Origin: Candidatus Omnitrophota bacterium
GTDB lineage: Bacteria > Omnitrophota > Gorgyraeia > Duberdicusellales > 4484-171
Assembly (NCBI GenBank): GCA_028692655.1
Contig: JAQUWY010000007.1
Coordinates: 1-62,952, forward strand
Direction: 5' to 3'
Length of the DNA: 62,952 bases
A model generated the notes under the pieces. The model was given only the letters and a program-made list of their open reading frames with translations. It was not told the DNA's origin and did no database searches. The translations under genes were made by a program, and so were the position numbers. Positions within the stretch are counted from its first letter, which is position 1. Every line of letters starts with the position of its first letter. Positions 560-22,168 of this stretch are shown in pieces.

Positions 560-754
560 ATCTATTAACCTCCTGGAGTTGAATGTTTATTGTATTCTAA
601 AACCGCCCGGATTTCAAACAATACTTTCGGGCTTTCTAACAAGCTTGAATTTATGTATTATTGGGGGTATATTGATAATAGCTTTATTTTAACTACATTT
701 TGCCCAATACCAAACTTTATATTGGTATTGGGTTTTTCTGGGAAAACTCCGTTA

Positions 755-773
755 GTTGATTTTTGTGTTATAG
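755..773 (+). mobile_element. Right half of attC-like (or attI-like) site; start of cassette 1
   Basis: GTTGATT-tttgt-GTTATAG; GTTATAG is the exact reverse complement of CTATAAC at 1616, as expected for the two ends of one cassette. Confidence 0.55.
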
Positions 774-800
774 GTAAATAATAAATAGGGGAAGAATAAA

Positions 801-1190
801 ATGAATTTTTGGGGAAAGATATCTAAAGTGTTATTAAGCTTTGGCGAAAGTCCGGCGGAACGAAAGATCAAAGAATCCACAATAGAAAATTGGTATCTAC
901 ATTTATCCGAAGAAGACCGAAAATTCTTCCCTGATAAGTCCGCGTTTGAAAAGGGCTTCCGTGATGTACCTGTGCGAAAAGTTGATCTGGCATTCCAAAT
1001 CTATCAAAAAGAAGCGAATGGACAGATGGAGAAAGAACCTTTATCGTCGTCTGACAAAACTCTTGTTGAGAATGCCTATCTAGCCGGTTATCATCAAGCT
1101 AAAGAAGAGTGGAAATGGTCAAAAGATGAGGCATGCAAAAGAGGTGATCAGGTCGCTTGGTTTGCATTACATATTTATAGATATTGTTAA
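801..1190 (+). CDS. Hypothetical protein (cassette 1, ORF1)
   Basis: 129-aa ORF, purine-rich RBS-like GGGGAAG upstream; no family recognised. Confidence 0.7.
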   Translation: MNFWGKISKVLLSFGESPAERKIKESTIENWYLHLSEEDRKFFPDKSAFEKGFRDVPVRKVDLAFQIYQKEANGQMEKEPLSSSDKTLVENAYLAGYHQAKEEWKWSKDEACKRGDQVAWFALHIYRYC

Positions 1191-1207
1191 TTCATAGGTA
1201 ATAAAAT

Positions 1208-1609
1208 ATGAGAAAATACATTGATGACATAACCGCAACTCTTGCCAAATTTCAATACATTGAGGAATTTCTTCGCATGTATATACAAAAAGTAAATAGC
1301 AGAATCAGAAAAACAATGAAGGGGAAAATACCCTACAAATACAGCGAAAAATGGGTTAAAAAAGATTCCTTAGGAACATTGATAGATAAATTTGAAAAAA
1401 ATAATGACAACAAAATTTTAATCAAAAGATTAAAAAGCTTAGTTCCTGAACGCAACAAAATAGCACATAAGGGGTTGTTAATCACTAGAGACCAGATTGT
1501 CAATGTTTCTTCTGTAAAATTAAAAAAAGAAAAGCTAAAAAAAATACGCATAAGTGCTGGAGTAGCACTAAATAGAATAAATGATGAAATAAGAAAAATT
1601 GAAAAATAA
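1208..1609 (+). CDS. Hypothetical helical protein with HEPN-like RNKIAH motif (cassette 1, ORF2)
   Basis: 133-aa ORF containing ERNKIAH (R-x4-H). Confidence 0.55.
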   Translation: MRKYIDDITATLAKFQYIEEFLRMYIQKVNSRIRKTMKGKIPYKYSEKWVKKDSLGTLIDKFEKNNDNKILIKRLKSLVPERNKIAHKGLLITRDQIVNVSSVKLKKEKLKKIRISAGVALNRINDEIRKIEK

Positions 1610-1615
1610 ATAAAC

Positions 1616-1845
1616 CTATAACAGCTCAATCCAGCCGACCTAAGCCGCCGGCTGGTTGAGGATATCGTAACATTGGGCCGTCGAAGTTGCTATTTTATAA
1701 AGAATTTGTGTCCGGGCGCCTGAATATCGGGTTAAATCTTACTCAACTTTGTTTCGTAACTTTTAACCCGAAGCGCCTCGGACATAGTTCAGCTAATCCC
1801 GGCCTTCGGTCGGGAAAGTTTCAATAGCTAATTTTTGTGTTAGGC
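1616..1845 (+). mobile_element. attC-like site A (unusually long)
   Basis: CTATAAC-5nt-AATCCAGC ... GCTAATT-5nt-GTTAGGC directly after a stop codon; extra C in L'' equals extrahelical G on the bottom strand. Confidence 0.6.
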
Positions 1846-1858
1846 CAACGAAATAATA

Positions 1859-2446
1859 ATGGATAAATTTCCAAAACGGAAACTGACTAGATTAAAAAAA
1901 TATGATTATTCACAAACAGGCTATTATTTTGTAACCATCTGCACACAAAACCGCAAAGAAATATTCGCATCGATTAAAAATAATCAAATAATATTAAACG
2001 AATTCGGCAGAATTGTTAAAAAATCATGGTTGCAAATACCCGAACATTTTAAAAACATCGAATTGGATAAATATATAATAATGCCCAACCATATCCATAC
2101 AATTATAAATATTGTAGGGGCGGGGTCACCCCGCCCGTTAAAAAACCACGACAATGATGATAACAAAATAATTGGGTATAGTATCGGGCGAGGAAACCTC
2201 GCCCCTACAAAATTGGGCCAGGTTATGGCATTTTTCAAATACCAGACAACAAAACAAATAAATAAATTACAAAATAGGCCAGGTATAAAAATATGGCAAC
2301 GTAGATATCATGACCACATTATCCGTAACGATAAATCATTGAATAGAATACGTGAATATATTGATAATAATCCTAAAACCTGGGATAATGATATTGAAAA
2401 CCCCATTAGGTTAGGTGCAATAGAATCGGAATTGATTAATGTATAA
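1859..2446 (+). CDS. REP-associated tyrosine transposase (RAYT, Y1 HUH family)
   Basis: RLKKYDYSQTGYYFVTICT, MPNHIH (HUH), WQRRYHDHIIR, YIDNNP. Confidence 0.9.
   Translation: MDKFPKRKLTRLKKYDYSQTGYYFVTICTQNRKEIFASIKNNQIILNEFGRIVKKSWLQIPEHFKNIELDKYIIMPNHIHTIINIVGAGSPRPLKNHDNDDNKIIGYSIGRGNLAPTKLGQVMAFFKYQTTKQINKLQNRPGIKIWQRRYHDHIIRNDKSLNRIREYIDNNPKTWDNDIENPIRLGAIESELINV
2114..2208. repeat. Inverted GTAG-type REP doublet inside the RAYT ORF
   Basis: GTAGGGGCGGGGTCACCCCGCCC (2114-2136) and reverse-oriented GGGCGAGGAAACCTCGCCCCTAC (2186-2208). Confidence 0.8.
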
Positions 2447-2614
2447 CAACTCAATCCCCGCCTTCGCGTAAAGCTATGGCGGGCAGGCAGCCGGCTCATT
2501 CGGCGCGCTCCTTGGCTTTGTCAAGTCGCTTACTCAGAGCAAGCTCCCCTGCAGCTAAAGCGGTTTACCCTGAGCGAATGAAATGAGTCGAAGGGCTGAT
2601 TTCGGGTGTCAGAA
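2441..2614 (+). mobile_element. attC-like site B carrying two palindromic insertions
   Basis: GTATAAC-aactc-AATC[31 bp insert]CAGC ... GCTGATT-6nt-GTCAGAA; overlaps RAYT stop codon. Confidence 0.6.
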
Positions 2615-2628
2615 ATAAAGAAGCGGTA

Positions 2629-3021
2629 ATGAGAAAAATAACTACAATTACTTTCTTGATAGCAATAAGTGTCTTCTTTAATAACTGCTTATTTGCCCAG
2701 CAGAAAAACACCGAATGCAAGAAGCTGAAAAAAGAGATAAAAAGCCTGATCAGTGAATGCCAAAGCTGTGAAACTGATGGAGAATGCTTTGTGGATGAGA
2801 GTTTGATTATAGGGTGCCCCTTTGGGTGTGATTTTATACGCAGCCATAAATTCGATAACAGTAAATATTTAACTTCAATTAAAATAGAAATTGAGAAATA
2901 CAGTGATGTATGCGAAAAATGCCTGTGGGATTGCGACGTTACACCCAAAAAGCAGGAAGTTGGCTGCCGCCAGGGCAAATGCGTGGATTTAAGATATTAT
3001 TCCGGGAAGAATCTGGATTAA
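2629..3021 (+). CDS. Secreted cysteine-rich hypothetical protein (cassette 3)
   Basis: Hydrophobic N-terminal signal-like segment; 11 Cys in mature region. Confidence 0.7.
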   Translation: MRKITTITFLIAISVFFNNCLFAQQKNTECKKLKKEIKSLISECQSCETDGECFVDESLIIGCPFGCDFIRSHKFDNSKYLTSIKIEIEKYSDVCEKCLWDCDVTPKKQEVGCRQGKCVDLRYYSGKNLD

Positions 3022-3028
3022 AAGATAA

Positions 3029-3457
3029 ATGAGGCTTTGGTCAATACATCCAAAATACTTAGACACAAAAGGGCTGCTTGCGCTCTGGCGGGAGGCTTTG
3101 CTGGCAAAAAAAGTGCTGCAAAATAAAACCAAAGGTTATAAAAAACACCCCCAGCTTCTGCGTTTTAAGAGTCAGAAAAACCCCGTTGGCGCTATAAATT
3201 ACTATCTTTATGAAATATTCAAAGAATCCAAAAAAAGAGGTTTTAATTTCTCCTGCCGCAAGGCCTGTTCTATATCTAAAAAGAGTTCTATTACCGTAAC
3301 AAGCGGACAAATAAAATATGAATTCAGCCATTTACTGGCTAAGTTAAGAAAAAGAGATGCGGTTAGGTATCGCTTGTTTAAAAATACTAAAAGAATAAAG
3401 GTGCATCCTATATTCAGAAAAAAGAAGGGCGAAGTAGAACCCTGGGAGAAATTGTAA
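3029..3457 (+). CDS. Pyrimidine dimer DNA glycosylase (T4 endonuclease V-like)
   Basis: MRLWSIHPKYLDTKGLLALWRE and HPQL motifs. Confidence 0.9.
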   Translation: MRLWSIHPKYLDTKGLLALWREALLAKKVLQNKTKGYKKHPQLLRFKSQKNPVGAINYYLYEIFKESKKRGFNFSCRKACSISKKSSITVTSGQIKYEFSHLLAKLRKRDAVRYRLFKNTKRIKVHPIFRKKKGEVEPWEKL

Positions 3458-3486
3458 AGCAGAAGAACGCATAGTAAATACAACCA

Positions 3487-4413
3487 CTAAACCCACCAGT
3501 AGCCTAATTCTTTCAAAATTCTTGGCCGGTGCTGCCAATCACTAAGAACCTTTACCCATATCTCAAGATATACTTTCTTATCGTAAATCTTCTCTATTTC
3601 TGAACGAGCCAAGGTGCCTATTGCTTTAAGGCCACGGCCCTGCTTGCCAATTACTATCTTTTTCTGAGAATTTCTCTGCACATATATTGTTACTTCTATA
3701 TGCACCACCTTTTTCCTGTCTTTTATGGCTGATACCTCTACTGCTACTGAATGGGGCAGTTCCCTGTCCAAGGCCAGAAAAAGCTTTTCCCTGACAATAT
3801 CGGCTATTCTAAACTGTATAGGAAAATCGGTCAGAGTATCTGTATCATAGAATGGGCCTGATTGCGGAAGATTTTCAAGTAAAGCCGCTCTAAGCTCATC
3901 TATATTCTTGCCGGTCTTGGCTGAAACCGGAATAAACTGTGCTGAAGGTTTTTTACCAACTTTTTCATCCGCCTTTTTTTGCCAAGCTTCAATGTAGCTA
4001 TTTAGATATACGGATTTTAGGTCTATTTTATTTAAAACCATGATTACAGGGATATTTTGAGTACTGATAATATCCATTAAGCGGGATTCTTCTTTGCCGA
4101 TGCGCCGAGAAACATCAACAACATACACAATAATATCGCTACCTTCTATCGAGCGTTTGGAAATAACATTGAGATGCTCAGCCAGATGGTCCTTGAAAGA
4201 GTGCATCCCGGGAGTATCCACAAATACTATTTGAGCTCCTTCTAAATTTAATATACCTCGTATCTGATGCCGGGTAGTTTGAGGAATGGGAGAAATGATA
4301 CTTACTTTCTCTCCTACTAAAGCATTCATCAAAGTAGATTTTCCTGTATTCGGCCGGCCTAACACCGCCACAAATCCTGCTTTAAATTTTTTTTCGCTTT
4401 CTTTTGTTATCAT
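3487..4413 (-). CDS. era: GTPase Era
   Basis: GRPNTGKSTL, PQTTR, DTPG, NKID, C-terminal KH domain with GKQG. Confidence 0.97.
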   Translation of the reverse strand: MITKESEKKFKAGFVAVLGRPNTGKSTLMNALVGEKVSIISPIPQTTRHQIRGILNLEGAQIVFVDTPGMHSFKDHLAEHLNVISKRSIEGSDIIVYVVDVSRRIGKEESRLMDIISTQNIPVIMVLNKIDLKSVYLNSYIEAWQKKADEKVGKKPSAQFIPVSAKTGKNIDELRAALLENLPQSGPFYDTDTLTDFPIQFRIADIVREKLFLALDRELPHSVAVEVSAIKDRKKVVHIEVTIYVQRNSQKKIVIGKQGRGLKAIGTLARSEIEKIYDKKVYLEIWVKVLSDWQHRPRILKELGYWWV

Positions 4414-6425
4414 TGACCGTTGTCCTTTACCCTTGCTAAACGGGTTTTTTCATAAAAATTATCTGTATATTCCCGGAACAAAGAAACTTCTAAAAATTCG
4501 GCTTTTAAGGGGTTATATCCATAAGAAGCCAAGAGAAAATAAGCCGTGGAAGAAAGCGAACCCGTCTTATCGCCTTTAGGTGTGCGCCAGCCGTGCCCGG
4601 TATCTATGAAAGGGCTTGTCGCATAAGGAAGACAAGGGTCCTGCTTACCCGATGCCGAAAGAGAAGTGATTATCATCTGCCCGAGCTGATCTGTATAAAA
4701 CCTGGCTTTGGTAAAATATATTTTAGACTTCGCGGGATTTATATCTTTAAAATATTCTGCCATTATCTCGAAAGATAAAATCATTTGAGATGTCCATTCT
4801 CCGGAAACAACGCCCCCCCTGGGAATATTCTTGGCTTTAGCGAAATCAAACCCCTGTATTTTAAATTCCTGCTGTCCCCGTTTGAATATAGCAGTAACCT
4901 CGCAATGTTTGACGGCAAAATCAAGAATTACCTCGGGGTCCATGTTTAATTCATAGAGCGTCTTGGGGCCGAAAGCCGCGATGGACCAGGCATAGGTATC
5001 AGTTGCTATCGTAGAATCTCCTTTGCCCCGTTTAACCGGAAGGTGAAAATCGGTATAACAATAGCGCTCAATCCACGACTTTATTTTATCCGCGGCGCGG
5101 CGGTATTCATAGTCACCGCTTAGCTCGTAGAATAATTCAAAAAAAGCGTAAGCATCAAGATTGTGCTCTGTGGAATACCAATCGTGCATAGGCCCGCCTT
5201 TAAGGCCGCATTCAGAATCCATCATCGATAACAAGAATCCTGCCACCTTTTGTGCTATAGCAATATACCTGTCATCTCCGCTTTCTTTGGTATAACATAA
5301 AGCCGCCAGGCCAATCCAGGCGTTGGGCCCGCTATGTATAACATATTCGAATACCTGGCCGTTTGAAAAATACGCGTTATAAATATCCTGGCCATGGTTA
5401 ACCCTTGCAAGGTAAAAATCAAGTATCCTGGAAGCCTCTCTCAAATGACCCTGGCAGGAAAAAACTATAGCAGCCAGCGCCTGATCGTAAGTAAAACAAG
5501 CTTCCTCTAAGCTGGCGTCTCCTTCGTAACTTATGACTAAACCGGTGGATAAATCCTGGCGGTTCCTTATCCAGCCAAACATCCCCTTTAAGATCTTTCC
5601 CGAAACAGCGCTTCTGGCTTTTTCTAACTCCCGAGCCTTGCGGCCGGCAAAAACGGCTGTTTCTTCTCTTTTTTTCTTCTGTGCTCTAAAAAAATCGTTT
5701 TCTTTCTTTAGGCGGGAAAGCTCGGATTCAAGAGAAAAAATTCTCTGTTCCAGGTCATGTGCCAGGTCAGACTTCCTGCTCTGCCTTGAAACCCGGTCAT
5801 ATTCTTCCTTCTTGCTGAGTATATTTTCATCCAGAAGCTTTATGCGGGAAGCTATTTCTTCTATACGTTCTTTATAAAATAAACTTTCTGACTGCTGATC
5901 CAGGAAGGTTTCGTCTAAAGAAGAGCTTTTTTGAATAATATCGATGTAATCACTAATCAACTCGTGGTTCTGGCGATTAAGCGAACGGGTTTCTAAAAAT
6001 AGTGCCGACGATACTATGGCCAATAGCAGTAACGAGGCTATTAAAACCCTGGGCACATATTTCTTCGCTATCGCAAAATTGAAAAGCAGTGCTGCTTTAT
6101 TTTTCGGTATATCTTTAAATTCCAAACCTGCCTTATATACTTTGTAAGAATCCTGTTGTTTCGCCTGCATCCAGGCAACGGTCGCCTGGGTTTCTATTGT
6201 CCTGTGCCCAAATGGAAGATGAATCTTCAATAGCAAACTGGACGGATCCTTGAGCCTATCCCAAAAACCCCACCATAAATCATTGGCTACCAGGCATATT
6301 CCGGCTTTGGCTATATCACGAGTAAACCCCTGCAGCCAGGGGGTAATCTGTTTACCATTCTCGTCCTGGACGACAAACTCTACCGGCAATACTGTCGATA
6401 TTCTTAAATATTTTCTCCTATTCAT
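4410..6425 (-). CDS. PilZ domain - TM helix - coiled coil - putative six-hairpin glycosidase-like domain protein
   Basis: RRKYLR and DIAKAG PilZ-like motifs; TM VLIASLLLLAIVSSALFL; coiled coil; TYDQALA / STEHNLD motifs. Start moved to MNRRK. Confidence 0.6.
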   Translation of the reverse strand: MNRRKYLRISTVLPVEFVVQDENGKQITPWLQGFTRDIAKAGICLVANDLWWGFWDRLKDPSSLLLKIHLPFGHRTIETQATVAWMQAKQQDSYKVYKAGLEFKDIPKNKAALLFNFAIAKKYVPRVLIASLLLLAIVSSALFLETRSLNRQNHELISDYIDIIQKSSSLDETFLDQQSESLFYKERIEEIASRIKLLDENILSKKEEYDRVSRQSRKSDLAHDLEQRIFSLESELSRLKKENDFFRAQKKKREETAVFAGRKARELEKARSAVSGKILKGMFGWIRNRQDLSTGLVISYEGDASLEEACFTYDQALAAIVFSCQGHLREASRILDFYLARVNHGQDIYNAYFSNGQVFEYVIHSGPNAWIGLAALCYTKESGDDRYIAIAQKVAGFLLSMMDSECGLKGGPMHDWYSTEHNLDAYAFFELFYELSGDYEYRRAADKIKSWIERYCYTDFHLPVKRGKGDSTIATDTYAWSIAAFGPKTLYELNMDPEVILDFAVKHCEVTAIFKRGQQEFKIQGFDFAKAKNIPRGGVVSGEWTSQMILSFEIMAEYFKDINPAKSKIYFTKARFYTDQLGQMIITSLSASGKQDPCLPYATSPFIDTGHGWRTPKGDKTGSLSSTAYFLLASYGYNPLKAEFLEVSLFREYTDNFYEKTRLARVKDNGQ

Positions 6426-6484
6426 AAAGCTTATCTCTATATCCTGGTTACCCAGTAAAATATGCGGGTTAGTGGGCCGGGAAA

Positions 6485-6847
6485 TCATTTACGAAGCTTA
6501 TTTAGCTTACTGAAAAATATTTTGAACTCGGTTAGTTCTCTCACTTTTTCCAAATCAGGATCCCTGAGCATATAAGAAAACTCTTCGTATCCTATCAGAA
6601 CCGCCCGTTTAAGTTCTTTTAAAGCTTCCTGAGGGCAATCGAGAAGGGAAAGGCTGCAGGCTAAATTATAATGCACAAAAGGATCATCGGGTTTAAGCTC
6701 GGCGAGTTTTCTATCAACGGCAAGGCCTTCCTGATAAAAGCCTTTGCGGGTATAGGAATCTCCCAAAGAAATCAGGACATTTACAAAATTCGGGCATTCT
6801 TTAAGTATGCTTTCATAAAATTTTATTTCGAAGTCTTTCCTTCTCAT
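6485..6847 (-). CDS. TPR-repeat protein
   Basis: LGDSYTRKG, YNLACSLS motifs; AGGAG upstream of MRRK start. Confidence 0.8.
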   Translation of the reverse strand: MRRKDFEIKFYESILKECPNFVNVLISLGDSYTRKGFYQEGLAVDRKLAELKPDDPFVHYNLACSLSLLDCPQEALKELKRAVLIGYEEFSYMLRDPDLEKVRELTEFKIFFSKLNKLRK

Positions 6848-6877
6848 TCTGTCGCTTCGCTCCTGCACGCTGATGAT

Positions 6878-6955
6878 CGCAGATTAGATACCGCAGATTG
6901 ACACAGGTATTATTCTGTGATCATCTGCGATTTTTCATCTGTGGCCATCTGCGTT
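6878..6955. repeat. CAGAT/ATCTG degenerate hairpin element, copy 1
   Basis: Tandem CGCAGATT units facing ATCTGCG/ATCTGTG units. Confidence 0.7.
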
Positions 6956-9303
6956 TTCTCTAGGATGATTTCTTCACGCAAGAGATATATCGCTTCTTCA
7001 AGATATTTTTTGAACTTTTGATAGTCTTTCTGCTCTACAATCGGCTTCTTCACAACGAATTCCTGCTTAAAATTAATAATTCCTGCGGCTTGCCGGCAGG
7101 AAACAGTAAGCTTAAACCAGGGGTTGTCTGAAATTACCTGACTTGGCAAATATTTTATAGTTACATTCTCGGGCAGCACTATATTGATATCAGCCGACTT
7201 AGTGTACAATCCTTCAAAATCTATGGGATAATTTCTTTCCTCTTTGCTTATCAATTTATAATCCAGATATACCTGATCCAAAACCGGGACTATCCGCAGT
7301 TTACCCGCCGGATTAAAAAATTTGTCGGCAAAGAAATTATAAATAAGCCTGGGGTTAGAGTCTAAACCTTCTATATTTTCAATTTTGTAATCCTTTAACT
7401 GCGAAAGAGAAGATATCTCCATCATTTTTTTCTGGATATTCTCTTTTATTATTTCAGGATGTGTATATTTTACATACCAGCGGTAAGAAGCAGCAAAAAA
7501 TCCCTCGCTTATAACACTTCTGGTAATGTCAGCGTTTTCCTCCAGTGAAATTTTTATATCCATGCCGTAACGAATAACATTATCGCTACTTTGTGGTGTA
7601 ACAAGCATTTCCCAGGTATCATCGAAAAAGACTAAAACTTTCCTGTCCTGATCTGAGGAAGGTATCCGGCCAAAAGAAGTTGTTTCGGCGGTAGGATCCA
7701 TAAATATAAGTTTACCCTCAATCTGCACAGCACAAATGGCATGATTAAAGTTTAAAGAAGGAAAACTTTCTTCTGCCGGATAAACTTGCCGGGTAGGAAT
7801 CAATACGGGATAAGCCGAAAGGCCGGCTTTTTTCAACATAGCTACCAGTAAAATAGCCTGGTCTTTGCAGTCGCCATAACGGTTAGTAAACACTTCCTGG
7901 GCCGAATGAGGTTCGTAGCCGCTGTCTCCGTATTCTATTGCCACATAGCGAATATTTTGGGCCACGAATTCATAAATGCTCTTGGCTTTTTGATAATCAT
8001 CCGCTTTGCCTTTTATCAAACCTTCTACAGCCGCTAAAGCATCTTTGCCTAAATCTAATTTCCCCTTATACAAAGATTTCCACCAGGTATAAATCTGGCC
8101 CCAAGAAGAAAAGCTTGAAACCGCAAATGCAGGATTAATCATAGACTCCGGCGGCATAGCGTATTCAGGAATGATGGATTTTACTTCCTTGAATTCCCAG
8201 CTATATATATTATTATCGGCATCCTGGCTCATAACCGGCTCAAGATTAATTTCTTTAGCATATCCCGGGTTAAAAAATTTGAATCTAGGCTGGGTTTTCT
8301 TAGGGACTATAAGCCGGAAAGAGGCTTTAAATATGGGGTAGGCTTCCCGCAAACGATAAATAAAGCTAAAGTCTTTTTCGTTGACAAGTTTAGAAGAATA
8401 AATTTTTAGTTTATACTCTATAATAGCGCCTACGTCGACTGCTGGCATAGAGACAATAAATGCCCGGGAATTACTGTATAGAGGAAAGTTAAGATACCTG
8501 CTGACATCTCTGATGTTTTCTCCTCCGGCATATACAACTTTGCCGTCTTTGGTGATAGTGCGGGCAAACTCCAATTCTACTCTCTGATAAGTAGAATCAT
8601 ACCCAACCTCAACTTCAGCAAGGCTTTTGCCCCGTTCTTTTAAAACCTTTTCTACAACATGAATTGAAGAAATAGATGTATTCTCTTCTGTTATTCTGGT
8701 TTCTTCATCCACAAGAAGCATTAGAGCAGCTTCGTCTTCTATTTTCTGAATAAATTCCTGGGAAGATTTATCCAGTTCCTCTACCTGGGGCGGGATTTTA
8801 CCCTCACTATTTGTCTTTATAAATTTTATTCTCTTTTGGGCTTTTTGTTTAAACCGGCCTTGAATTTTAGCATAGATTTTTAAAGCTTTAGGGAAAAGGT
8901 TTTTATTCTCCAAGACATCCCCGTAAAGATAAAGGTATTCTGAATCTTGCGGTTGGAGTTTAATCTGCTCAAAAAGAGCCATAGCAAAGTCGTATTCTTT
9001 TAGACGGGCGTATGTTTTAGCAAGAAGGTGGCTGGCTACAGGATTATCAAAACCAATGAGAATATCTTTTGCTTTTTGATAATCTCTAAAATTATAGTAG
9101 AACTGGGCTAGCTCGAGCCTTAATTTGGCATCATCCGGATTAAGAGCAAGCGCCTGTTGATAACTGGCGGTTAAATTCTGATAGTTCCTGCTAAAATCCG
9201 TAAGGCTTTCCTGCTGATAAAGACACCTGTTCGAAGCAGAACAGGAATAGAAACTCACCAGTAATAAAACTATTATTAATTTATGAAATGATTTTAAGCA
9301 CAC
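6910..9303 (-). CDS. Probable lipoprotein: TPR + DUF3857 + transglutaminase-like domain
   Basis: Lipobox-like FYSC; GDCKD, FNHAI, MDPT give Cys-His-Asp triad. Confidence 0.85.
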   Translation of the reverse strand: MCLKSFHKLIIVLLLVSFYSCSASNRCLYQQESLTDFSRNYQNLTASYQQALALNPDDAKLRLELAQFYYNFRDYQKAKDILIGFDNPVASHLLAKTYARLKEYDFAMALFEQIKLQPQDSEYLYLYGDVLENKNLFPKALKIYAKIQGRFKQKAQKRIKFIKTNSEGKIPPQVEELDKSSQEFIQKIEDEAALMLLVDEETRITEENTSISSIHVVEKVLKERGKSLAEVEVGYDSTYQRVELEFARTITKDGKVVYAGGENIRDVSRYLNFPLYSNSRAFIVSMPAVDVGAIIEYKLKIYSSKLVNEKDFSFIYRLREAYPIFKASFRLIVPKKTQPRFKFFNPGYAKEINLEPVMSQDADNNIYSWEFKEVKSIIPEYAMPPESMINPAFAVSSFSSWGQIYTWWKSLYKGKLDLGKDALAAVEGLIKGKADDYQKAKSIYEFVAQNIRYVAIEYGDSGYEPHSAQEVFTNRYGDCKDQAILLVAMLKKAGLSAYPVLIPTRQVYPAEESFPSLNFNHAICAVQIEGKLIFMDPTAETTSFGRIPSSDQDRKVLVFFDDTWEMLVTPQSSDNVIRYGMDIKISLEENADITRSVISEGFFAASYRWYVKYTHPEIIKENIQKKMMEISSLSQLKDYKIENIEGLDSNPRLIYNFFADKFFNPAGKLRIVPVLDQVYLDYKLISKEERNYPIDFEGLYTKSADINIVLPENVTIKYLPSQVISDNPWFKLTVSCRQAAGIINFKQEFVVKKPIVEQKDYQKFKKYLEEAIYLLREEIILEKTQMATDEKSQMITE

Positions 9304-9571
9304 TTTTAATATCCTGGCCTTCCTTTATTCCCAGGCTTTTAGCTTTACGGCTGGCTGAATACACGTTGGAACTCAAAGCCTGCTTGATGGTAGAAACACC
9401 TTTGATTAAAACCGCCGTATCTTTAAAGCTGTCGGCAGCTTTTAAGTTTAGATAGCCGCACATCACATAACCGCGCCTGCCTTTTAGAATTATCAGCTTC
9501 TTTTTCCCCAGAGGCATACAATAAGCTGCGATATTTTTTCTGCCTATCCTTATCTTTTTAGTTTGCAGCAT
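9281..9571 (-). CDS. DUF1805/YunC family protein
   Basis: GYVMCGYLN motif, 96 aa. Confidence 0.85.
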   Translation of the reverse strand: MLQTKKIRIGRKNIAAYCMPLGKKKLIILKGRRGYVMCGYLNLKAADSFKDTAVLIKGVSTIKQALSSNVYSASRKAKSLGIKEGQDIKSVLKIIS

Positions 9572-9601
9572 TTTTAAAAGATTTGCTTTTTAAGATACTA
9601 T

Positions 9602-10753
9602 CTATTTAAGAGCTTTTATAAATCTCTCTATGCGGATTATCGCTTCTTTTAAATTGTCCAGAGTGTTGGCGTAAGATATCCTTATATGCGTATCAAATTC
9701 GTCGCCAAAAGCTTTTCCCGGAACGACAGCGACTTTTTCCTGAAATAAAAGCTTCTTCGCAAAATCCAGGCAATTAACATGGAATTTTTTCAGGGAAGGG
9801 AAACAATAAAAAGCGCCTTGAGGCTTTGGAGTATAGAATCCCAGGCGGTTTAATTCCTTAACTACAAAGTCTCTTCTTCTTTTATATTGGCTCCGCATAT
9901 CCGCGACTTCTCTCTGAGCCCGCAGAGCTTCTATCGCGGCAACTTGCGAAACAATAGGGACACACATCATTGAAAAAGAATGGATTTTAGTCATGGCAGA
10001 AATAATTTCCTTGTCAGCACATACATACCCCACCCTAAACCCTGTCATCGCATACCCTTTGGAAAACCCATTAAGCAGAATCGTTTTACGTTTGGCTTTT
10101 TTATCTAAAGCAGTAAAAGGTACATGCTTAAAATCGTAGGTCAACTCATCATAAACTTCATCGCTTATAACAAGCGCCCCGCTTAAAGCTATCAGACGCC
10201 AAATCTTTGCGAGCTCCGAACCAGAATAATGAACCCCAGTCGGGTTTGAAGGATTGTTCAAGATAATAGCTTTAGGTTTTACAGATAGGGCGTTCTTTAG
10301 CTGCTTTAAATCTATCTTAAAATCACTTTTTTCGTCAGTAATTAGATACTGCACTTTTGCTCCGGCAATTTGTGCTAAAGCCGGATAAGCTACGTAATGA
10401 GGGCTTATTACTAAAACCACGTCTTTTGGCTCTACTATGGCACGCAAAGCAAGGTCAAGCCCTTCACTGACACCGGTAGTTATTAAAATTTCATTTTCCG
10501 GTTTATAGTTAAGCGAGTATTTAGAATTTAGAAATTCAGAAATCCCCTGACGAAGGCTAAGTAAACCGCTGTTAGAAGTATAAGAAGTCAAGCCTTCTTC
10601 AAGAGCAGTAATAGCTTTTTCCCTGATTCTCCAAGGGGTTATAAAATCCGGCTCGCCTACACCCAGGGAAATAACCTCCGGCATGCCCAGCACCAGGTCA
10701 AAGAATTCCCTGATTCCCGAAGGAGAAACTTTTTTTATGTGTTTAGCAATCAT
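9602..10753 (-). CDS. Class I/II PLP-dependent aminotransferase
   Basis: LGVGEPDF, NPSNPTG, SDEVY, GFSKGYAMTGFRVG; start moved to MIAK. Confidence 0.93.
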   Translation of the reverse strand: MIAKHIKKVSPSGIREFFDLVLGMPEVISLGVGEPDFITPWRIREKAITALEEGLTSYTSNSGLLSLRQGISEFLNSKYSLNYKPENEILITTGVSEGLDLALRAIVEPKDVVLVISPHYVAYPALAQIAGAKVQYLITDEKSDFKIDLKQLKNALSVKPKAIILNNPSNPTGVHYSGSELAKIWRLIALSGALVISDEVYDELTYDFKHVPFTALDKKAKRKTILLNGFSKGYAMTGFRVGYVCADKEIISAMTKIHSFSMMCVPIVSQVAAIEALRAQREVADMRSQYKRRRDFVVKELNRLGFYTPKPQGAFYCFPSLKKFHVNCLDFAKKLLFQEKVAVVPGKAFGDEFDTHIRISYANTLDNLKEAIIRIERFIKALK

Positions 10754-10762
10754 ATTATTTCT

Positions 10763-10833
10763 GTGCCTGTACACCAGCCACCAGTGCACCAGTTAATTTT
10801 TCTCACCAGTGCTATGGCGTTACTGTAACCGGC
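10763..10833. repeat. CACCAG(T/C) ~7-mer repeat tract
   Basis: caccagc-caccagt-gcaccagt ... caccagt in lrp-aminotransferase gap. Confidence 0.55.
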
Positions 10834-10839
10834 ACTCCT

Positions 10840-11322
10840 TTAATAGGTTATCGGCAATCTTTGGTTTTTGTCTTTTTTTGTTAAAATTATCCCGTCTTCT
10901 TTATATTTTTTAAGCATAAAATGTGTAGCCGTAGCTTTTACCGAACTCAAAGGAGCCAGCTTTTCGGAAACAAATCCAGCCACAGTCTGTATATCTTTGC
11001 CGGAGACCTCTAACAGCAAATCATACGTACCCGACAAAAGATAGCAATTTTTTACTTCCGGAAAACGGTAAATCCTTTCAGCGATAAGATCGAAACCTAC
11101 ATCTTTCTGCGGTGCTATTCTAACTTCTATAAGCGCTACGACGTTCTGTTCATTTTTGAGTTTTGTTTTATTAATAATAGCTTTATATTTTACGATAATT
11201 CCTTTTTTTTCGTAACTCTTTACTGCTTTTTCTATTTCTTTGATACTCTTGCCGGTTAATTTTTTCAGGTCTTCAAAAGAAATCCTGGCATTACTTTCTA
11301 AAATCTCCAAGATATCATCCAT
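10840..11322 (-). CDS. Lrp/AsnC family transcriptional regulator
   Basis: ILEILESNARIS HTH, SGTYDLLL; AAGGAGG RBS before MDDIL. Confidence 0.93.
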   Translation of the reverse strand: MDDILEILESNARISFEDLKKLTGKSIKEIEKAVKSYEKKGIIVKYKAIINKTKLKNEQNVVALIEVRIAPQKDVGFDLIAERIYRFPEVKNCYLLSGTYDLLLEVSGKDIQTVAGFVSEKLAPLSSVKATATHFMLKKYKEDGIILTKKDKNQRLPITY

Positions 11323-11606
11323 ATTATCCTCCTTGCGTAATTTTATTGGAGCTTTCATAATTTATAAATACCTTCTGCGGGTTTAATATCTCCTAATAGC
11401 TTCGCTGGCAGGCTATTGTAATCTTCCAAAATAGCCACATCTGCATCTTCATCATCCGAAACAGAAACCTGAAAGCTTAGAATATTTTAACCCCTCGCAA
11501 GATACGCCGGGCTTTAGGGCCATCTCTATGAATAGCCCGAGAGGGCTTTGCTCTTAAATTCGGCACACTCTGTATTTTACCAAATTATTCCTTTATGCAT
11601 AGAAAA

Positions 11607-12437
11607 TTATGCATCGGAAGGTTCCGTGTGTAAATTCAGGATTTGCCTTAGGCTTATCCTCAAAACTTTCGAATCCTTATCCTGATAGCACAGGTAAAAA
11701 CCTTTTTTTTCTTGTGTGACCTGCAGCGGTTTAAGCAGCGCCTCTTCAACCCTCCGCGCACAAGAAAAGCATCTTGCTTTAATTACACCTTCGGAATCAA
11801 TAACCTGACGCAAGACGCCTATTTTCTTATTTTCTTGGGCCTGAAAAATGTCATTATCTAACCCGCAAAGAGATACAAGCTCCTCTAAAGTTTCAATCCC
11901 CTTTTGCTTAAAAACATCTATAAGCTTATAGAAAATTTTAGCGGCAAAAAGAGAATCATCTATCGCCCTATGGAATCCACCACTGCAATCTAAATTAAAA
12001 TAGCGGGCAACTGACTCAAGATTATATCTGGTCAGTTCCAACAAACCTCTGGCCATCGAGAGTATGTCAACAGCCGGAACATCCGGGGCTTCATAGTTGT
12101 TTTTTTTAAGATAGTGTTTAATAAACCCTACATCAAAACCGGCATTATATGCACAGATAATGGATCCTTTTAAGAATTTAATCAGGTTATCGGCAATTTC
12201 TTTAAAAGCAGGTGCATTTTTAAGTTCTTCATCAGAAATTTTATGCACCTGGTAAGCCTCCTTGGGCATAAGTTTTCCGGGATTAACCAGGCTGTGAAAT
12301 GTCTGAATCGTCCGGCGTTTTTCCATTTTTACCGCACCTATCTCACAAATTGCATCTCCCATAACAAAATCTAAGCCGGTAGTTTCTAAATCAAGAAAAA
12401 CTAAAGTGTACTCTTCAATATTTTTTTTTAAATCCAT
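11607..12437 (-). CDS. DEDDh 3'-5' exonuclease (DNA Pol III epsilon-like) with possible WYL-like C-terminus
   Basis: DLETTG, YNAGFD, HRAIDD; start moved to MDLKK. Confidence 0.85.
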   Translation of the reverse strand: MDLKKNIEEYTLVFLDLETTGLDFVMGDAICEIGAVKMEKRRTIQTFHSLVNPGKLMPKEAYQVHKISDEELKNAPAFKEIADNLIKFLKGSIICAYNAGFDVGFIKHYLKKNNYEAPDVPAVDILSMARGLLELTRYNLESVARYFNLDCSGGFHRAIDDSLFAAKIFYKLIDVFKQKGIETLEELVSLCGLDNDIFQAQENKKIGVLRQVIDSEGVIKARCFSCARRVEEALLKPLQVTQEKKGFYLCYQDKDSKVLRISLRQILNLHTEPSDA

Positions 12438-12442
12438 ATTTT

Positions 12443-12520
12443 TCGGTTTGCGGTTAACGGCGTTCGGTTTTCGGATTTTCTTTTTTTTCGAAAACCGCAA
12501 ACCTAAAACCGACAACCGAA
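12443..12520. repeat. 7-mer repeat hairpin (TTCGGTT / AAAACCG)
   Basis: ttcggtt tgcggtt aacggcg ttcggtt ttcggat facing aaaaccg caaacct aaaaccg acaaccg. Confidence 0.7.
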
Positions 12521-12524
12521 TTAA

Positions 12525-12935
12525 TTAGATGATTATCTTAGCAACAACTGTTCTTTCTCTAGAACGTGTGTCGAAATCAACCAATACTATTTGCTGCCAG
12601 GTACCTAAATCAAGATTACTTTCAGAAACGGAAACAAAAAAATTAGTTTTTAAAAAAGTGCTGCGTAAATGCGAATGGCCATTGTCATCACTCCATGCAG
12701 CATTATGAGCATAATCTTTGCGAAAGGGCAACAGGCGCTCAAAAGACTGGCTTAGATCTTTTACCAAACCGGGCTCATATTCCATAGTAGTCAAGGCTGC
12801 AGTTGAACCTATGACTGACAGAAAAATAATCCCGCTTTCTATGTGGTTTTGGGCGATGAGAGCCTGTATTTGAGGGGTAATATTGATAATATCATCGTTC
12901 CCTTTGGTCTTTATCTTTATAAATGCTGTTATCAT
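12525..12935 (-). CDS. YjbQ family protein (paralog 1)
   Basis: DNGHSHLRS, LGTWQQIVLVDFD. Confidence 0.9.
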   Translation of the reverse strand: MITAFIKIKTKGNDDIINITPQIQALIAQNHIESGIIFLSVIGSTAALTTMEYEPGLVKDLSQSFERLLPFRKDYAHNAAWSDDNGHSHLRSTFLKTNFFVSVSESNLDLGTWQQIVLVDFDTRSRERTVVAKIII

Positions 12936-12955
12936 ACTCCCAAAATGGCCCGGAT

Positions 12956-13279
12956 TTATCCTATTTTGCTGCCGGGGTCAACTTTCTTATCGCAGGTTAA
13001 TAGTCCCAAATCATCCTTTGAGCGGGCCGCTAAAAGCATGCCTTCGGAAACTATACCCCTGAGAGTTTTCGGTTCAAGATTGGCCAGCACCACCACCTGT
13101 TTACCCAGCAAAGAATCCTGCTCATAAAAAGGCTTGATCCCAGCCACCAAAGTAACTACTTTTTCTCCAATATCAACTTTTAGAACATATAGTTTTTCCG
13201 CATCGGGATGAGGGTTTACCTCGATTACTTTGCCTATTTTTAAGTCTAATTTTGAAAAATCATCGAAACTTACCATCAA
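12956..13279 (-). CDS. Stand-alone tRNA-binding OB-fold protein (Trbp111/CsaA/MetG C-terminal-like)
   Basis: FSKLDLKIG, HPDAEKLY, NLEPKTLRGIVSEGMLL. Confidence 0.9.
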   Translation of the reverse strand: MMVSFDDFSKLDLKIGKVIEVNPHPDAEKLYVLKVDIGEKVVTLVAGIKPFYEQDSLLGKQVVVLANLEPKTLRGIVSEGMLLAARSKDDLGLLTCDKKVDPGSKIG

Positions 13280-13447
13280 ACCTCCTTCTGAATGATACCA
13301 CCGTTGAATATTGTAGAATATTTTATTTAACAGACTTTAAAATTTTCAAGCCTCATCTTTCTTGATTCTACCAACTCTTGAAATTAAAGCAATGTTTTTT
13401 GTTTTATGCCGGCAAGGAAGGCTTAACCTGTTAAGAAAGTCTATCTG

Positions 13448-13762
13448 TCAGGCCTTAAAAGCTATATCTTTTATAATTATCCAGAGCAGAACGACTATGA
13501 TAACCGTAGATACAATGTAGAAATCATGAAAATATATGAACTCTCGCAGCTTTTCTAAATTACGGTGCTGTTTTTCAGGAATATTGTATTTCTTCTTTAT
13601 CGCCGGGCGGATTTTTAGAACATCTTCCCTCCTGAAACGCAGGAATTCTCCGGCAACTTTAAAATGAGGGATAATGTTGTTGTTTGCCAAAGCGATTATT
13701 TCTTTTTCGGGGATTCCCAGGATATGCGAAGCTTCCCGGGTAGCTAAAAGTTTTTCTTTCAT
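13448..13762 (-). CDS. Excisionase-like HTH protein with C-terminal TM helix
   Basis: LLATREASHILG..IPHFKVAGEFLRF; hydrophobic YIVSTVIIVVLLWIII. Confidence 0.75.
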   Translation of the reverse strand: MKEKLLATREASHILGIPEKEIIALANNNIIPHFKVAGEFLRFRREDVLKIRPAIKKKYNIPEKQHRNLEKLREFIYFHDFYIVSTVIIVVLLWIIIKDIAFKA

Positions 13763-13915
13763 TTTTACTTCTAATACTTTTATTTCTATTACTTAATTCT
13801 TTTAAGAAAATATATTTTACAGTATTTTTATATCAAGGCAATGTTTATTTTAAGCCGCAAGCTGACTTAAAAGGCACAACAATACTCGGCGGAATAAGTT
13901 CAAGCGGTATTCTTA

Positions 13916-14410
13916 TCAAGTTCTGGTAGCTATCCACTCTTCTACTTGTTTACGGTCAAACAAGAGCTTATTGCCTTCTTTTTCAACCGGAATCTTGCCT
14001 CCGTCAACCCATTCCATGATCTTTCCCTCCTCGATTGACAGGTAATCGGAAAGCTCTGAAAGAGATATTTGAGATTCAAGCATCCGGCTCTTACCGTTAA
14101 ATACGGCACCTTCTTCAATGGAGAGCTTGGGAGCCTGGATGTCTCCAACAACTTGAGCGGTAGAAACAAGTCTTAAAATTTCGCTGGCCCTGATATTACC
14201 TTTTACGTTTCCGGCAACAGTAACTGCCTCTCCAATAATATCAGCCTTAACCTCAGCGCTGGAACCTATAATCAGATTGCCTTTGGTAGTAAGATTTCCT
14301 TCAAACTTACCGTTAATCCTCAAATTTACAGGGTCGGAAAAAACCAGGCTTCCCTGCATGGCGGCATCAACATCAAGGACTTTCTCATCCATCCTTCTTT
14401 TGGCCATCAT
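13916..14410 (-). CDS. Bactofilin fused to C-terminal excisionase-like HTH
   Basis: LRINGKFEGNL..VAGNVKGNI..LSIEEGAVFNG; LSELSDYLSI..WVDGGKIP..LLFDR. Confidence 0.85.
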   Translation of the reverse strand: MMAKRRMDEKVLDVDAAMQGSLVFSDPVNLRINGKFEGNLTTKGNLIIGSSAEVKADIIGEAVTVAGNVKGNIRASEILRLVSTAQVVGDIQAPKLSIEEGAVFNGKSRMLESQISLSELSDYLSIEEGKIMEWVDGGKIPVEKEGNKLLFDRKQVEEWIATRT

Positions 14411-20526: not shown

Positions 20527-20623
20527 AAATCCGCCTTTGAAATAATGATTTTTCCCAAGAAATTTTAATTATACCATCACCATTTTAAAAATCCATCAAA
20601 ACAGGGCTTTCCTAACAATTGGA

Positions 20624-22168
20624 TCAAGAAGGTTTGAATTTCCCCCTGAACATTGAGGCCTCAAGAAAACTTTGGAGCCTGCGCGAACGGCTGGGATGCC
20701 TTAACTTTTTAAGCGCTTTTGCTTCAATCTGCCTTATGCGTTCACGAGTTACTTTGAAAATGGTCCCAACCTCCTCCAAAGTCTTGGGACTGCCGTCCTC
20801 AAGCCCAAAACGTAAAGTAAGAATATTTTTTTCTCTGTCAGTCAAGCTTTCCATAGCCTGTTCAAGTTCTTCTTTTAACATAGAAAAAACTGTGGCATTA
20901 GCCGGTGAAACCGCTTTTTTGTCTTCTATGAAATCTCCGAAAGATGTGTCTCCGTCGTCCCCGATAGGAGTATGAATTGAGATGGGCTGTTGGGAAACTT
21001 TAATAATATCTTTTATTTTTACTACCGGCAGCCTTAATTCTTTGGCTAACTCTTCCGGCGTAGGCTCCTTACCTTTTTCCTGTATAAAAAGCCGCGATAT
21101 CCTTATTATTTTATTAATCGTTTCTGTCATATGCACAGGAATCCTTATGGTACGCGCCTGATCAGCTATAGCTCTGGTTATAGCCTGGCGTATCCACCAA
21201 GTAGCATAAGTAGAAAACTTATACCCTCTTTTATATTCAAACTTTTCTACAGCCTTAATCAGCCCGATATTCCCTTCCTGTATTAAATCCAGAAAGGATA
21301 GGCCACGATTCACATACTTTTTTGCTATACTGACAACCAGCCTCAGGTTTGCTTCTGCCAGCGTGCGTTTTGCTTGATTATAAGCACGGGCCTTATCCAT
21401 TGTGGCACGCATCTTGTCTTTGGGCTCCTGTTGGCCAAAACCAAGTTTTTTGACCAGTCGTTTTCTTTCCCGAGAAAGCTGCCTCCTCTGACTTTCTTTT
21501 GCTTTGCCGCGGCCTTTTATTCTATCTTCTTTTTTCTTCAGCGCTACAGCCTGACGGACGATTTCTTTAGTTTTAGCTATAATCTGCTCTATAATACCGA
21601 TTGTGAAATTAAATTCTTTTAAAGTTTTTTTCTGGCTTTCGATTTTTTTAGTACGGGACAGTTTCCCGTAAAGCTTCTGTATCCTTTTAATTTCCTTTTC
21701 TTTGTTTTTTATCTCTCCCTTTACAAAATCATCGGGGTTGAGCTCTTCGCTTATCAGTTGTTTGGATATTTTTACAAACGCGTCTTTTGATATCCCGGTA
21801 GAGAAGACTTCTTCCCGCAGGATTTCTTCGGCGTCTTCAATTTTCTTGGCAAGAGTAATTTCTTCCTCACGGGAAAGCAGAGGAATCTGGCCCATTTGTT
21901 TAAGATACATCTTCACCGGATCATCTATCGGCTGAGTGGTAGAAGTCGTTTGTTTTTTCTTCTCCTTTTCCCATTCTGAAACCTCTTTAGCTTCCAGCAC
22001 ACTTATATCTTTGCTGTCTAATTTCTCAAATATACTGTCTAAGTCCTGAGCCGTAATTACTTCTTCCGAGAGAAAGTGATTTATTTCATCATAAGTAAGA
22101 TAACCCTTCTTTTTTCCTAAATCAATTAACTGCCCAATACTTCTTTCTAAAAGTTTCTTCTTAACCAT
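20624..22168 (-). CDS. rpoD: RNA polymerase primary sigma factor
   Basis: [24 protein letters not shown], region 4 [10 protein letters not shown]. Confidence 0.97.

Follow-up and report, generated by a model that had tools for sequence, protein, structure and literature searches.

This study concerns a short array of gene cassettes in the genome of Candidatus Omnitrophota bacterium (assembly GCA_028692655.1, contig JAQUWY010000007.1), bounded by sites that resemble attC, the recombination sites of integrons. The DNA analyzed, here called the window, is a 63-kb stretch (62,952 nt), in which the array is preceded by only 680 bp. The array sits at the junction between a nitroreductase gene and era, and probably represents what is left of an integron. 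Its five open reading frames (ORFs), at 801–3457, are all on the + strand, and nearly all the remaining genes of the window are on the − strand; a co-oriented group among housekeeping genes had already been recognized in an earlier reading made from the sequence alone (hereafter the preliminary description). The features of the locus, in window coordinates, are:

62–559, − strand: nitroreductase gene (Pfam PF00881, E = 6e-29), the conserved left flank of the variable locus
681–3486, + strand: variable segment, made up of the cassette array and a terminal two-gene unit, with breakpoints taken from comparison with the related contig L010
702–733, + strand: terminator-like hairpin, a 12-bp stem followed by TTTTCT, upstream of site A
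755–773, + strand: site A, an attC right half alone (L' GTTGATT, spacer TTTGT, R' GTTATAG), the left arm being absent upstream
801–1190, + strand: cassette 1, ORF1, 129 aa, protein of unknown function
1208–1609, + strand: cassette 1, ORF2, 133 aa, predicted HEPN-type RNase (sub-threshold HEPN_RiboL-PSP match)
1616–1845, + strand: site B, a long attC of 230 nt (R'' CTATAAC, L'' AATCCAGC, a 191-nt branched center, L' GCTAATT, R' GTTAGGC)
1859–2446, + strand: cassette 2, gene for a Y1 (HUH) transposase of 195 aa (PF01797) resembling the REP-associated tyrosine transposases (RAYT; REP, repetitive extragenic palindrome)
2441–2614, + strand: site C, a damaged attC of 174 nt (R'' GTATAAC, L'' AATC/CAGC interrupted, L' GCTGATT, R' GTCAGAA)
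2457–2487, + strand: 31-nt GC-rich hairpin CCCGCCTTCGCGTAAAGCTATGGCGGGCAGG inside L'' of site C, located by the position of an alignment gap
2629–3021, + strand: terminal unit, ORF4, 130 aa, cysteine-rich secreted-type protein with a signal peptide
3029–3457, + strand: terminal unit, pdg, pyrimidine-dimer DNA glycosylase (PF03013, E = 2e-23), 29 nt from the era stop codon
3487–4413, − strand: era (GTPase), the conserved right flank

Cassettes are moved by an integron integrase that recognizes the folded bottom strand of attC, in which R'' is paired with R' and L'' with L', the spacers, of 5–6 nt, are unpaired and a G is extrahelical. The cut falls between the G and the TT of R', so that each cassette opens with a TTRRRY that pairs with its own R''. 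In the array, the right halves read GTTGATT-TTTGT-GTTATAG (755–773), GCTAATT-TTTGT-GTTAGGC (1827–1845) and GCTGATT-TCGGGT-GTCAGAA (2595–2614), and direct reading bears out the layout shared by three right ends at 755, 1827 and 2595 that the preliminary description had pointed to. It had also placed two left ends at or just after stop codons, and this is where they lie: the left half of site B, CTATAAC-AGCTC-AATCCAGC (1616–1635), starts 7 nt past the stop codon of ORF2, and that of site C, GTATAAC-AACTC-AATC (2441–2456), contains the TAA stop codon of the RAYT-like gene. As proposed there, AATCCAGC is AATCAGC, the reverse complement of GCTGATT, plus one C. A repeat search paired 740–770 with 1812–1842 (31 nt) and 1605–1632 with 2430–2457 (28 nt), and the two shared motifs of 16–18 nt have no further mismatch-free copy in the window.

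Orthologues of the nitroreductase (65–90% identity) adjoin a RumA-type methyltransferase gene in many Omnitrophota contigs, and one of them led to a related contig (L128/L130; L130 is Logan SRR12088349_30625) with a complete integron at the same junction. There, RumA and nitroreductase are followed by intI, ten small ORFs in one orientation, and then era and the PilZ, TPR and DUF3857/transglutaminase genes, so that the nitroreductase on one side and era with PilZ on the other are common to L130 and the window, with nucleotide similarity reaching the DUF3857 gene. The integron lies at 5169–14200, between nitroreductase and era, and its ten cassette ORFs extend over 7.5 kb. The recombinase (450 aa) scores 395.7 bits with TIGR02249, for which the cut-off is 265, and shares 43% identity with IntI1 over 320 residues; the intI ORF as called carries about 106 extra N-terminal residues. 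There is an attI (ATTAATT/GTTAGAT, the stroke marking the junction) and nine attC sites of 73–175 nt, the longest being the branched site a7 (12164–12338). The last ORF overlaps the era stop codon and a terminal attC is absent, as it is after pdg in the window. Between the cassette genes of L130 and those of the window, blastn found no nucleotide similarity.

Other relatives carry different DNA at this position. A contig search based on era gave one useful relative, L010, in which nitroreductase and a RumA-type gene lie left of the junction and the flanks are 87–91% identical to the window at the nucleotide level; similarity ends after TATATTGATAA (at about 680) and restarts at the era stop codon. 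In place of 681–3486, L010 has an unrelated 1.1 kb with one 223-aa ORF, and pdg is absent. In L126/L127 and L129 the order is era, a variable stretch of 0.5–0.7 kb of other content, nitroreductase and RumA. No attC was found at the junction of L010, L126 or L129. The preliminary description had suggested looking in relatives for an empty locus; the array is indeed absent from L010, L126 and L129, but their junction holds other content rather than being empty, and in L130 it holds a full integron. The content of the nitroreductase–era junction thus varies, and in at least one lineage it is an integron.

Judged by their sequence, the window half-sites are members of the attC family of the integrase-bearing integron of L130. 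In the site A region, the 30 nt at 752–781 share 93% identity with the right arm of a7, and the AATCCAGCCGACC and GGTCGGG...GCTRATTTTTGTGTTA of site B match the arms of another L130 site, a1: site B reads CTATAAC-AGCTC-AATCCAGCCGACC...GGTCGGG-(12 nt)-GCTAATT-TTTGT-GTTAGGC and a1 reads ATCTAAC-AAATC-AATCCAGCCGACC...GGTCGGGCGGCTGATT-TTTGT-GTTATCT. Since a complete integron lies at the orthologous junction and its attC sites are of the same family, the window array is supported as an orphaned integron or cluster of attC sites lacking an integron integrase (CALIN), which is how it had first been interpreted; the reciprocal models described below add to this support, and the window holds no integrase.

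The ends of cassette 1 obey the pairing rule set out above. The sequence ACCTATAAC (1614–1622) is exactly complementary to GTTATAGGT (767–775), at 9/9 positions, so that the complementarity of CTATAAC to the GTTATAG opening the same cassette, which had been noticed at the outset, extends to the neighboring bases; at the variable R-box positions the match with the opening R' is 5/5. Across the L130 cassettes, 38/45 variable positions of R'' agree with the opening R', compared with 16/45 for the site's own R'. That the three outer R-box positions are mostly unpaired within a site is expected, because the crossover at G/TT swaps them between neighbors. Pairing of R'' with the opening R' is a mechanistic signature of integron recombination.

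Position-weight matrices for the half-sites were built from two sets, 12 class-1 attC sites from resistance plasmids and 13 attC sites from other Omnitrophota contigs (L130, L046 and L006, none from the window), and were scanned over both strands of the window, about 126,000 positions; a version of the Omnitrophota matrices trained on 8 sites was also scanned. At 12 bits or more, the matrices from 13 sites returned only the five half-sites and, on the minus strand, the mirror images of the two left ones. The scores were 16.5 bits for the right half of site A, 21.2 and 18.7 bits for the left and right halves of site B (both the best in the window), and 15.4 and 16.2 bits for those of site C. 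With the class-1 matrices alone, the left halves rank 5th and 10th and the right halves 4th, 28th and 98th of the roughly 126,000 positions, and class-1 information on its own is suggestive of the window half-sites but not decisive. By a rough estimate of our own, the odds are about 6e-8 that five top matches would by chance share a strand and be ordered R, L-R, L-R within 1.9 kb, each at an ORF boundary. Elsewhere in the window, the class-1 left-half matrix gave 17.9 bits to TCCTAACAATTGGATCAAGA at 20610–20629, a lone half-site at the 3' end of a − strand gene for which no partner was found; it is probably a chance match.

Two covariance models were also built, R1 from 15 class-1 attC sites with central loops trimmed and the textbook R- and L-box structure, and R2 from 8 Omnitrophota sites only. 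R1 matched L046 at 1782–1855 (28.5 bits, E = 2e-4) and 2513–2586 (31.8 bits, E = 3e-5), and L006 at 5499–5559 (26.7 bits, E = 1.3e-4) and 4525–4585 (16.8 bits, E = 0.058). In the other direction, R2 recovered the class-1 attC sites of catB3, qacF, aadA1, aadB and gcuF at E = 6.6e-9 to 1e-5, the full range of its class-1 matches being E = 6.6e-9 to 1.5e-3, and it found four L130 sites outside its training set (a5, a6, a8 and a9). As far as such models can tell, Omnitrophota and class-1 attC sites recognize each other in both directions. When the 13 non-window sites were aligned with sites B and C, the L-box helix was 92% paired, with compensatory changes at 6/9 pairs, and its covariation score was 0.209, against 0.105 in shuffled alignments (0/500 reached the observed value) and at most 0.062 with slid partners; the alignment was defined by the box grammar and is to that extent biased towards the structure. 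The R''-L''..L'-R' grammar with an extrahelical base, which the preliminary description had taken as established, can thus be seen in the pairing of site B, in site C after removal of its insert, and in the covariation of the family.

The three sites differ in their state of preservation. Site A has the R' box GTTATAG and no R''. It is best taken as a truncated attC, because an attI junction would not retain an L' box and spacer. A candidate ORF-less attC or left arm at 687–757 (TTTTAAC...TGGGAAA-ACTCC-GTTAGTT) scored −10.5 and 2.1 bits with the Omnitrophota matrices and was dropped. The similarity with L010 breaks upstream of both site A and the hairpin at 702–733. That hairpin, a strong terminator-like structure with a T run, separates site A from the promoter region of the nitroreductase gene, and no gene on the + strand precedes it. 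In site B, the core boxes CTATAAC and GTTAGGC satisfy RYYYAAC/GTTRRRY with an intact GTT triplet, and AATCCAGC forms 6/7 pairs with GCTAATT, the seventh being a G-T wobble on the bottom strand, with one C bulged. The interior of site B consists of an arm-proximal hairpin, one of 78 nt, the CATAGTTC motif and a further, small hairpin; both the layout and CATAGTTC also occur in the 175-nt a7 of the complete integron, and site B may be a natural long attC rather than a wreck. Site C has GTATAAC as its R'' box. MAFFT opens a 31-nt gap in it precisely between AATC and CAGC, and with 2457–2487 deleted the L'' becomes AATCCAGC, which pairs with L' at 7/7 positions and leaves one C bulged.

Several observations weigh against reading the locus as an integron-derived array. 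In the class-1 scan, site B has the highest joint score of the window, 32.4, but this reaches only about the 95th percentile of random 63-kb sequences. The ends of cassette 2, which carries the RAYT-like gene, match at 1/5 variable positions and so do not obey the end rule. In site C, the R' box GTCAGAA has a mutated triplet, GTC instead of GTT. Site B, at 230 nt, and site C, at 174 nt (143 nt without the insert), are long compared with the typical 55–140 nt of attC, and there is no attC downstream of pdg. Searches by tblastn with IntI1 (E ≤ 10) and with the L130 integrase (E ≤ 1) found no integrase or remnant of one in the window, and the loss of intI from this locus is something we infer. 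Two checks that the preliminary description had named gave negative outcomes. Neither R1 nor R2 produced a significant whole-site match in the window, the best being 1616–1667 at 12 bits and E = 3.5. These negatives carry little weight, because the models penalize long central loops and miss genuine long attC sites: R1 overlooks those of blaIMP-4, qacG2, blaOXA-1 and arr-3, even though it was trained on their trimmed forms, and R2 overlooks a7 within the complete integron. Likewise, minimum-energy folds of whole spacers leave the ends of sites B and C unpaired, with the inner hairpins competing, and spacer C folds no better than shuffled sequence (z = 0.26); whole-spacer folding is uninformative for sites of such length. 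The interpretation is thus a supported one with qualifications: the sites are long or damaged, no whole-site model score is significant, and the RAYT cassette breaks the end rule.

Taken together, the segment 681–3486 is very probably an integron-type cassette array without its own integrase or attI, that is, a CALIN, a largely frozen remnant situated at a junction where a related lineage has a complete sedentary integron. The array would descend from an integron at the same locus, from which a deletion would have removed intI, attI, any earlier cassettes and the left arm of site A. With a half-site A, a 230-nt site B, an interrupted GTC site C and no attC past the last genes, it looks largely fossil. 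Site A presumably cannot fold, and site C, with a hairpin splitting its L'' and GTC in place of the cleavage triplet GTT, would be inactive as well, leaving site B as the only one that a trans-acting integrase could still use as a partner. The HEPN pair, the RAYT-like transposase and the secreted protein with pdg would then be cargo and not the machinery that moves the cassettes.

ORF1 and ORF4 had no match in Pfam, NCBIfam or PADLOC. A word-based search recovered only ORF2 itself as a homologue of ORF2, which has 324 related clusters; the motif R82-x4-H87 (RNKIAH) is invariant in 30/30 aligned relatives, and 8/30 match HEPN_RiboL-PSP. An Rfam search of the window returned two tRNAs only, and the array region had no match. 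The "AT-rich patch" of the preliminary description stands in a mild form, the array having 36.5% GC compared with 40.6% for the window, and does not extend to the spacers, which are GC-rich (44–55%).

The RAYT-like protein scores 72 bits with NF047646 (REP-associated tyrosine transposase; cut-off 80) and only 16.8 bits with the NCBIfam model transpos_IS200 (cut-off 55). Its exact sequence was confined to the window locus among the collections searched. Homologues are very common and mostly stand alone among housekeeping genes, and two closer ones, P0018 in L006 (55% identity) and one in L046 (50%), are found in cassettes bounded by attC; L046 is the only one of 80 metagenome RAYT loci with an attC match at E < 1. 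The Y1 gene lies between two similar GC-rich hairpins in direct orientation (1795–1817 and 2453–2487), each with AATCC in front of it. Within the RAYT-like ORF itself, at 2114–2137 and 2187–2209, are inverted, GTAG-headed, GC-rich palindromes, GTAGGGGCGGGGTCACCCCGCCC...GGGCGAGGAAACCTCGCCCCTAC, in frame and between the HUH motif and the tyrosine region. The same in-ORF palindromes are found in homologues (L003 4258–4335; L006 4259–4325; L046 1466–1490 and 1713–1738), and the pair looks like a REP doublet embedded in coding sequence. At another RAYT locus, L003, an AT-rich leader of about 200 nt, TAAAAGCAGCTCCAAATTTTTTCTTG..., is repeated ahead of two successive genes (3800–4000 and 4625–4840), each copy beginning at a GTTAAAAG- or GCTAAAAG-like boundary.

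Three other explanations of the locus were considered. The one closest to that favored here accepts an integron-type array and denies that it is the remnant of a local integron: the cassettes would have been inserted at a secondary site by an integrase encoded elsewhere in the genome, or the block would have arrived without intI by homologous recombination through the flanking genes. The window does lack any intI pseudogene or trace of attI, and a local integron would need several independent losses, given that the array is lacking in L010, the closest relative, and in two others. Secondary-site integration is a listed origin of CALINs, 95% of which have no intI pseudogene nearby (PMC4889954). 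Against this, the complete integron of L130 lies at the identical junction, its sites are of the same attC family with a7 matching site A at 93%, and the truncated arm of site A is more easily explained by a deletion than by new insertion at a simple GTT; we regard such an origin as unlikely.

A second possibility is that the spacers are REP-type hairpins, or ends of the IS200/IS605 kind, recognized by the RAYT-like HUH enzyme, so that their likeness to attC would be a coincidence. RAYT genes are classically flanked by REPs, the similar AATCC-preceded hairpins do stand on both sides of the Y1 gene, and the 31-nt hairpin recurs in other metagenome contexts. The same box grammar, however, bounds cassettes without a RAYT gene in the window, L006, L046 and L130; an attC match is as rare among metagenome RAYT loci as stated above, and several homologues sit among housekeeping genes with no such spacers; and the motifs are unique to the locus within 63 kb, the hairpin sequence being absent from the other RAYT loci compared. 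This explanation of the R and L boxes is largely refuted and must be considered very improbable. Least credible of all is that the motifs match attC by chance, or are just terminator hairpins of the ordinary sort separating small, unrelated genes. Random 63-kb sequences do yield maxima averaging 13.7 bits for the left half and 15.3 bits for the right, and the folding of spacer C is no better than that of shuffled sequence, but accident is already refuted by the clustering at ORF boundaries of the five top half-sites, all correctly ordered and on the correct strand, by the 9/9 complementary ends of cassette 1, and by the identity of site A to an attC arm of a real integron.

Among known systems, the array is a clear example of a known element type, not a new kind. 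CALINs are common. Sedentary chromosomal integrons with an inactivated or lost integrase also exist, for example that of Xanthomonas beside ilvD. The window array resembles these in a location fixed across a lineage, with conserved housekeeping genes on both sides, in its fairly homogeneous, lineage-specific attC sites, and in an integrase present or lost according to the member; it differs in that the integrase is wholly absent and not a pseudogene, the array is very short (two cassettes and a terminal unit), and the closest relative has no array. IntegronFinder has a default attC size limit of 200 nt and would probably miss site B. Compared with L130, the junction, the orientation, the attC boxes (AATCCAGC.../GCTGATTTTTGTGTTA), the long branched site (a7 against B) and a last gene adjoining era with no attC between them are alike, whereas L130 has intI, attI and ten cassette ORFs. 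In the window the divergent neighbor of the array is the nitroreductase gene, and with both intI and attI absent the element is not a complete integron. A CALIN, as defined with IntegronFinder, is a cluster of attC sites lacking an integron integrase (Cury et al. 2016, PMC4889954), a definition that covers the window array, with its two full sites, one half-site and no intI in the window; it departs from the CALINs of that study in the size of its sites (174 and 230 nt), in one being a half-site and one split by a hairpin and carrying GTC, and in its last two genes having no attC. A REPtron would share the RAYT-like Y1 gene, the GC-rich hairpins on both sides and the GTAG palindromes within the ORF, but in the window the gene is inside an attC-bounded cassette, the flanking hairpins are direct and not inverted, and none is dispersed in the window. 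As to IS200/IS605 elements, the RAYT-like protein is not an IS200-type TnpA by profile score and is not a repeated unit.

The window sequence is present in landfill metagenomes, and there the hairpin of about 31 nt is also found with other flanks, in contigs whose matches start at 2453–2457 and end at 2486–2490; its depth is 670 in one 50-nt unitig and 54 in one 677-nt contig. The hairpin is thus a discrete recurring unit. In the source sample the left arm plus the 31-nt insert occurs in at least three further attC-like sites. A 153-nt contig (run X2), from a related strain, joins, at about 90% identity, 2421–2491 (the left arm of site C with the insert) to 1650–1716 (a B-like interior), which points to a single long-attC subfamily comprising sites B and C. 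The community accordingly holds more sites of this subfamily. A blastn-short search with the interiors of sites B and C found no copies in any of the other loci compared, RAYT loci included, which gives no ground for calling them a repeat family. A metagenome joint at 786–1608, skipping ORF1 and ORF2, was discounted: its shorter side is only 21 nt, its sequence is AT-rich, and it is not at G/TT.

It could be speculated that a distinct class of long (175–230 nt), branched attC sites with a conserved inner module, exemplified by site B and a7, exists in Omnitrophota integrons and, as a separate matter, that hairpins of about 31 nt insert between AATC and CAGC of L'' and are moved by cassette-borne RAYT enzymes. 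This proposal is unlikely to hold. Under it, the inner module would be the arm-proximal hairpin, the large hairpin, CATAGTTC and the small hairpin; the hairpin inserts would break L'' and so lock cassettes in place, here the RAYT cassette; and the hairpins might be mobilized by the HUH enzymes of RAYT type that form part of the cargo of at least three arrays. If true, it would link two hairpin systems of single-stranded DNA, the integron and RAYT/REP.

Our search of the literature found no description of integrons in Omnitrophota. At one junction, a matched set is now available, consisting of a complete integron (L130), an eroded array without an integrase (the window) and content free of attC (L010, L126 and L129), a series that illustrates possible routes by which cassette arrays originate and erode in this little-studied phylum. 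With the size limits and covariance models in standard use, attC detection would probably overlook long branched sites like those of this lineage, and the integron content of such genomes is probably under-counted as a result.

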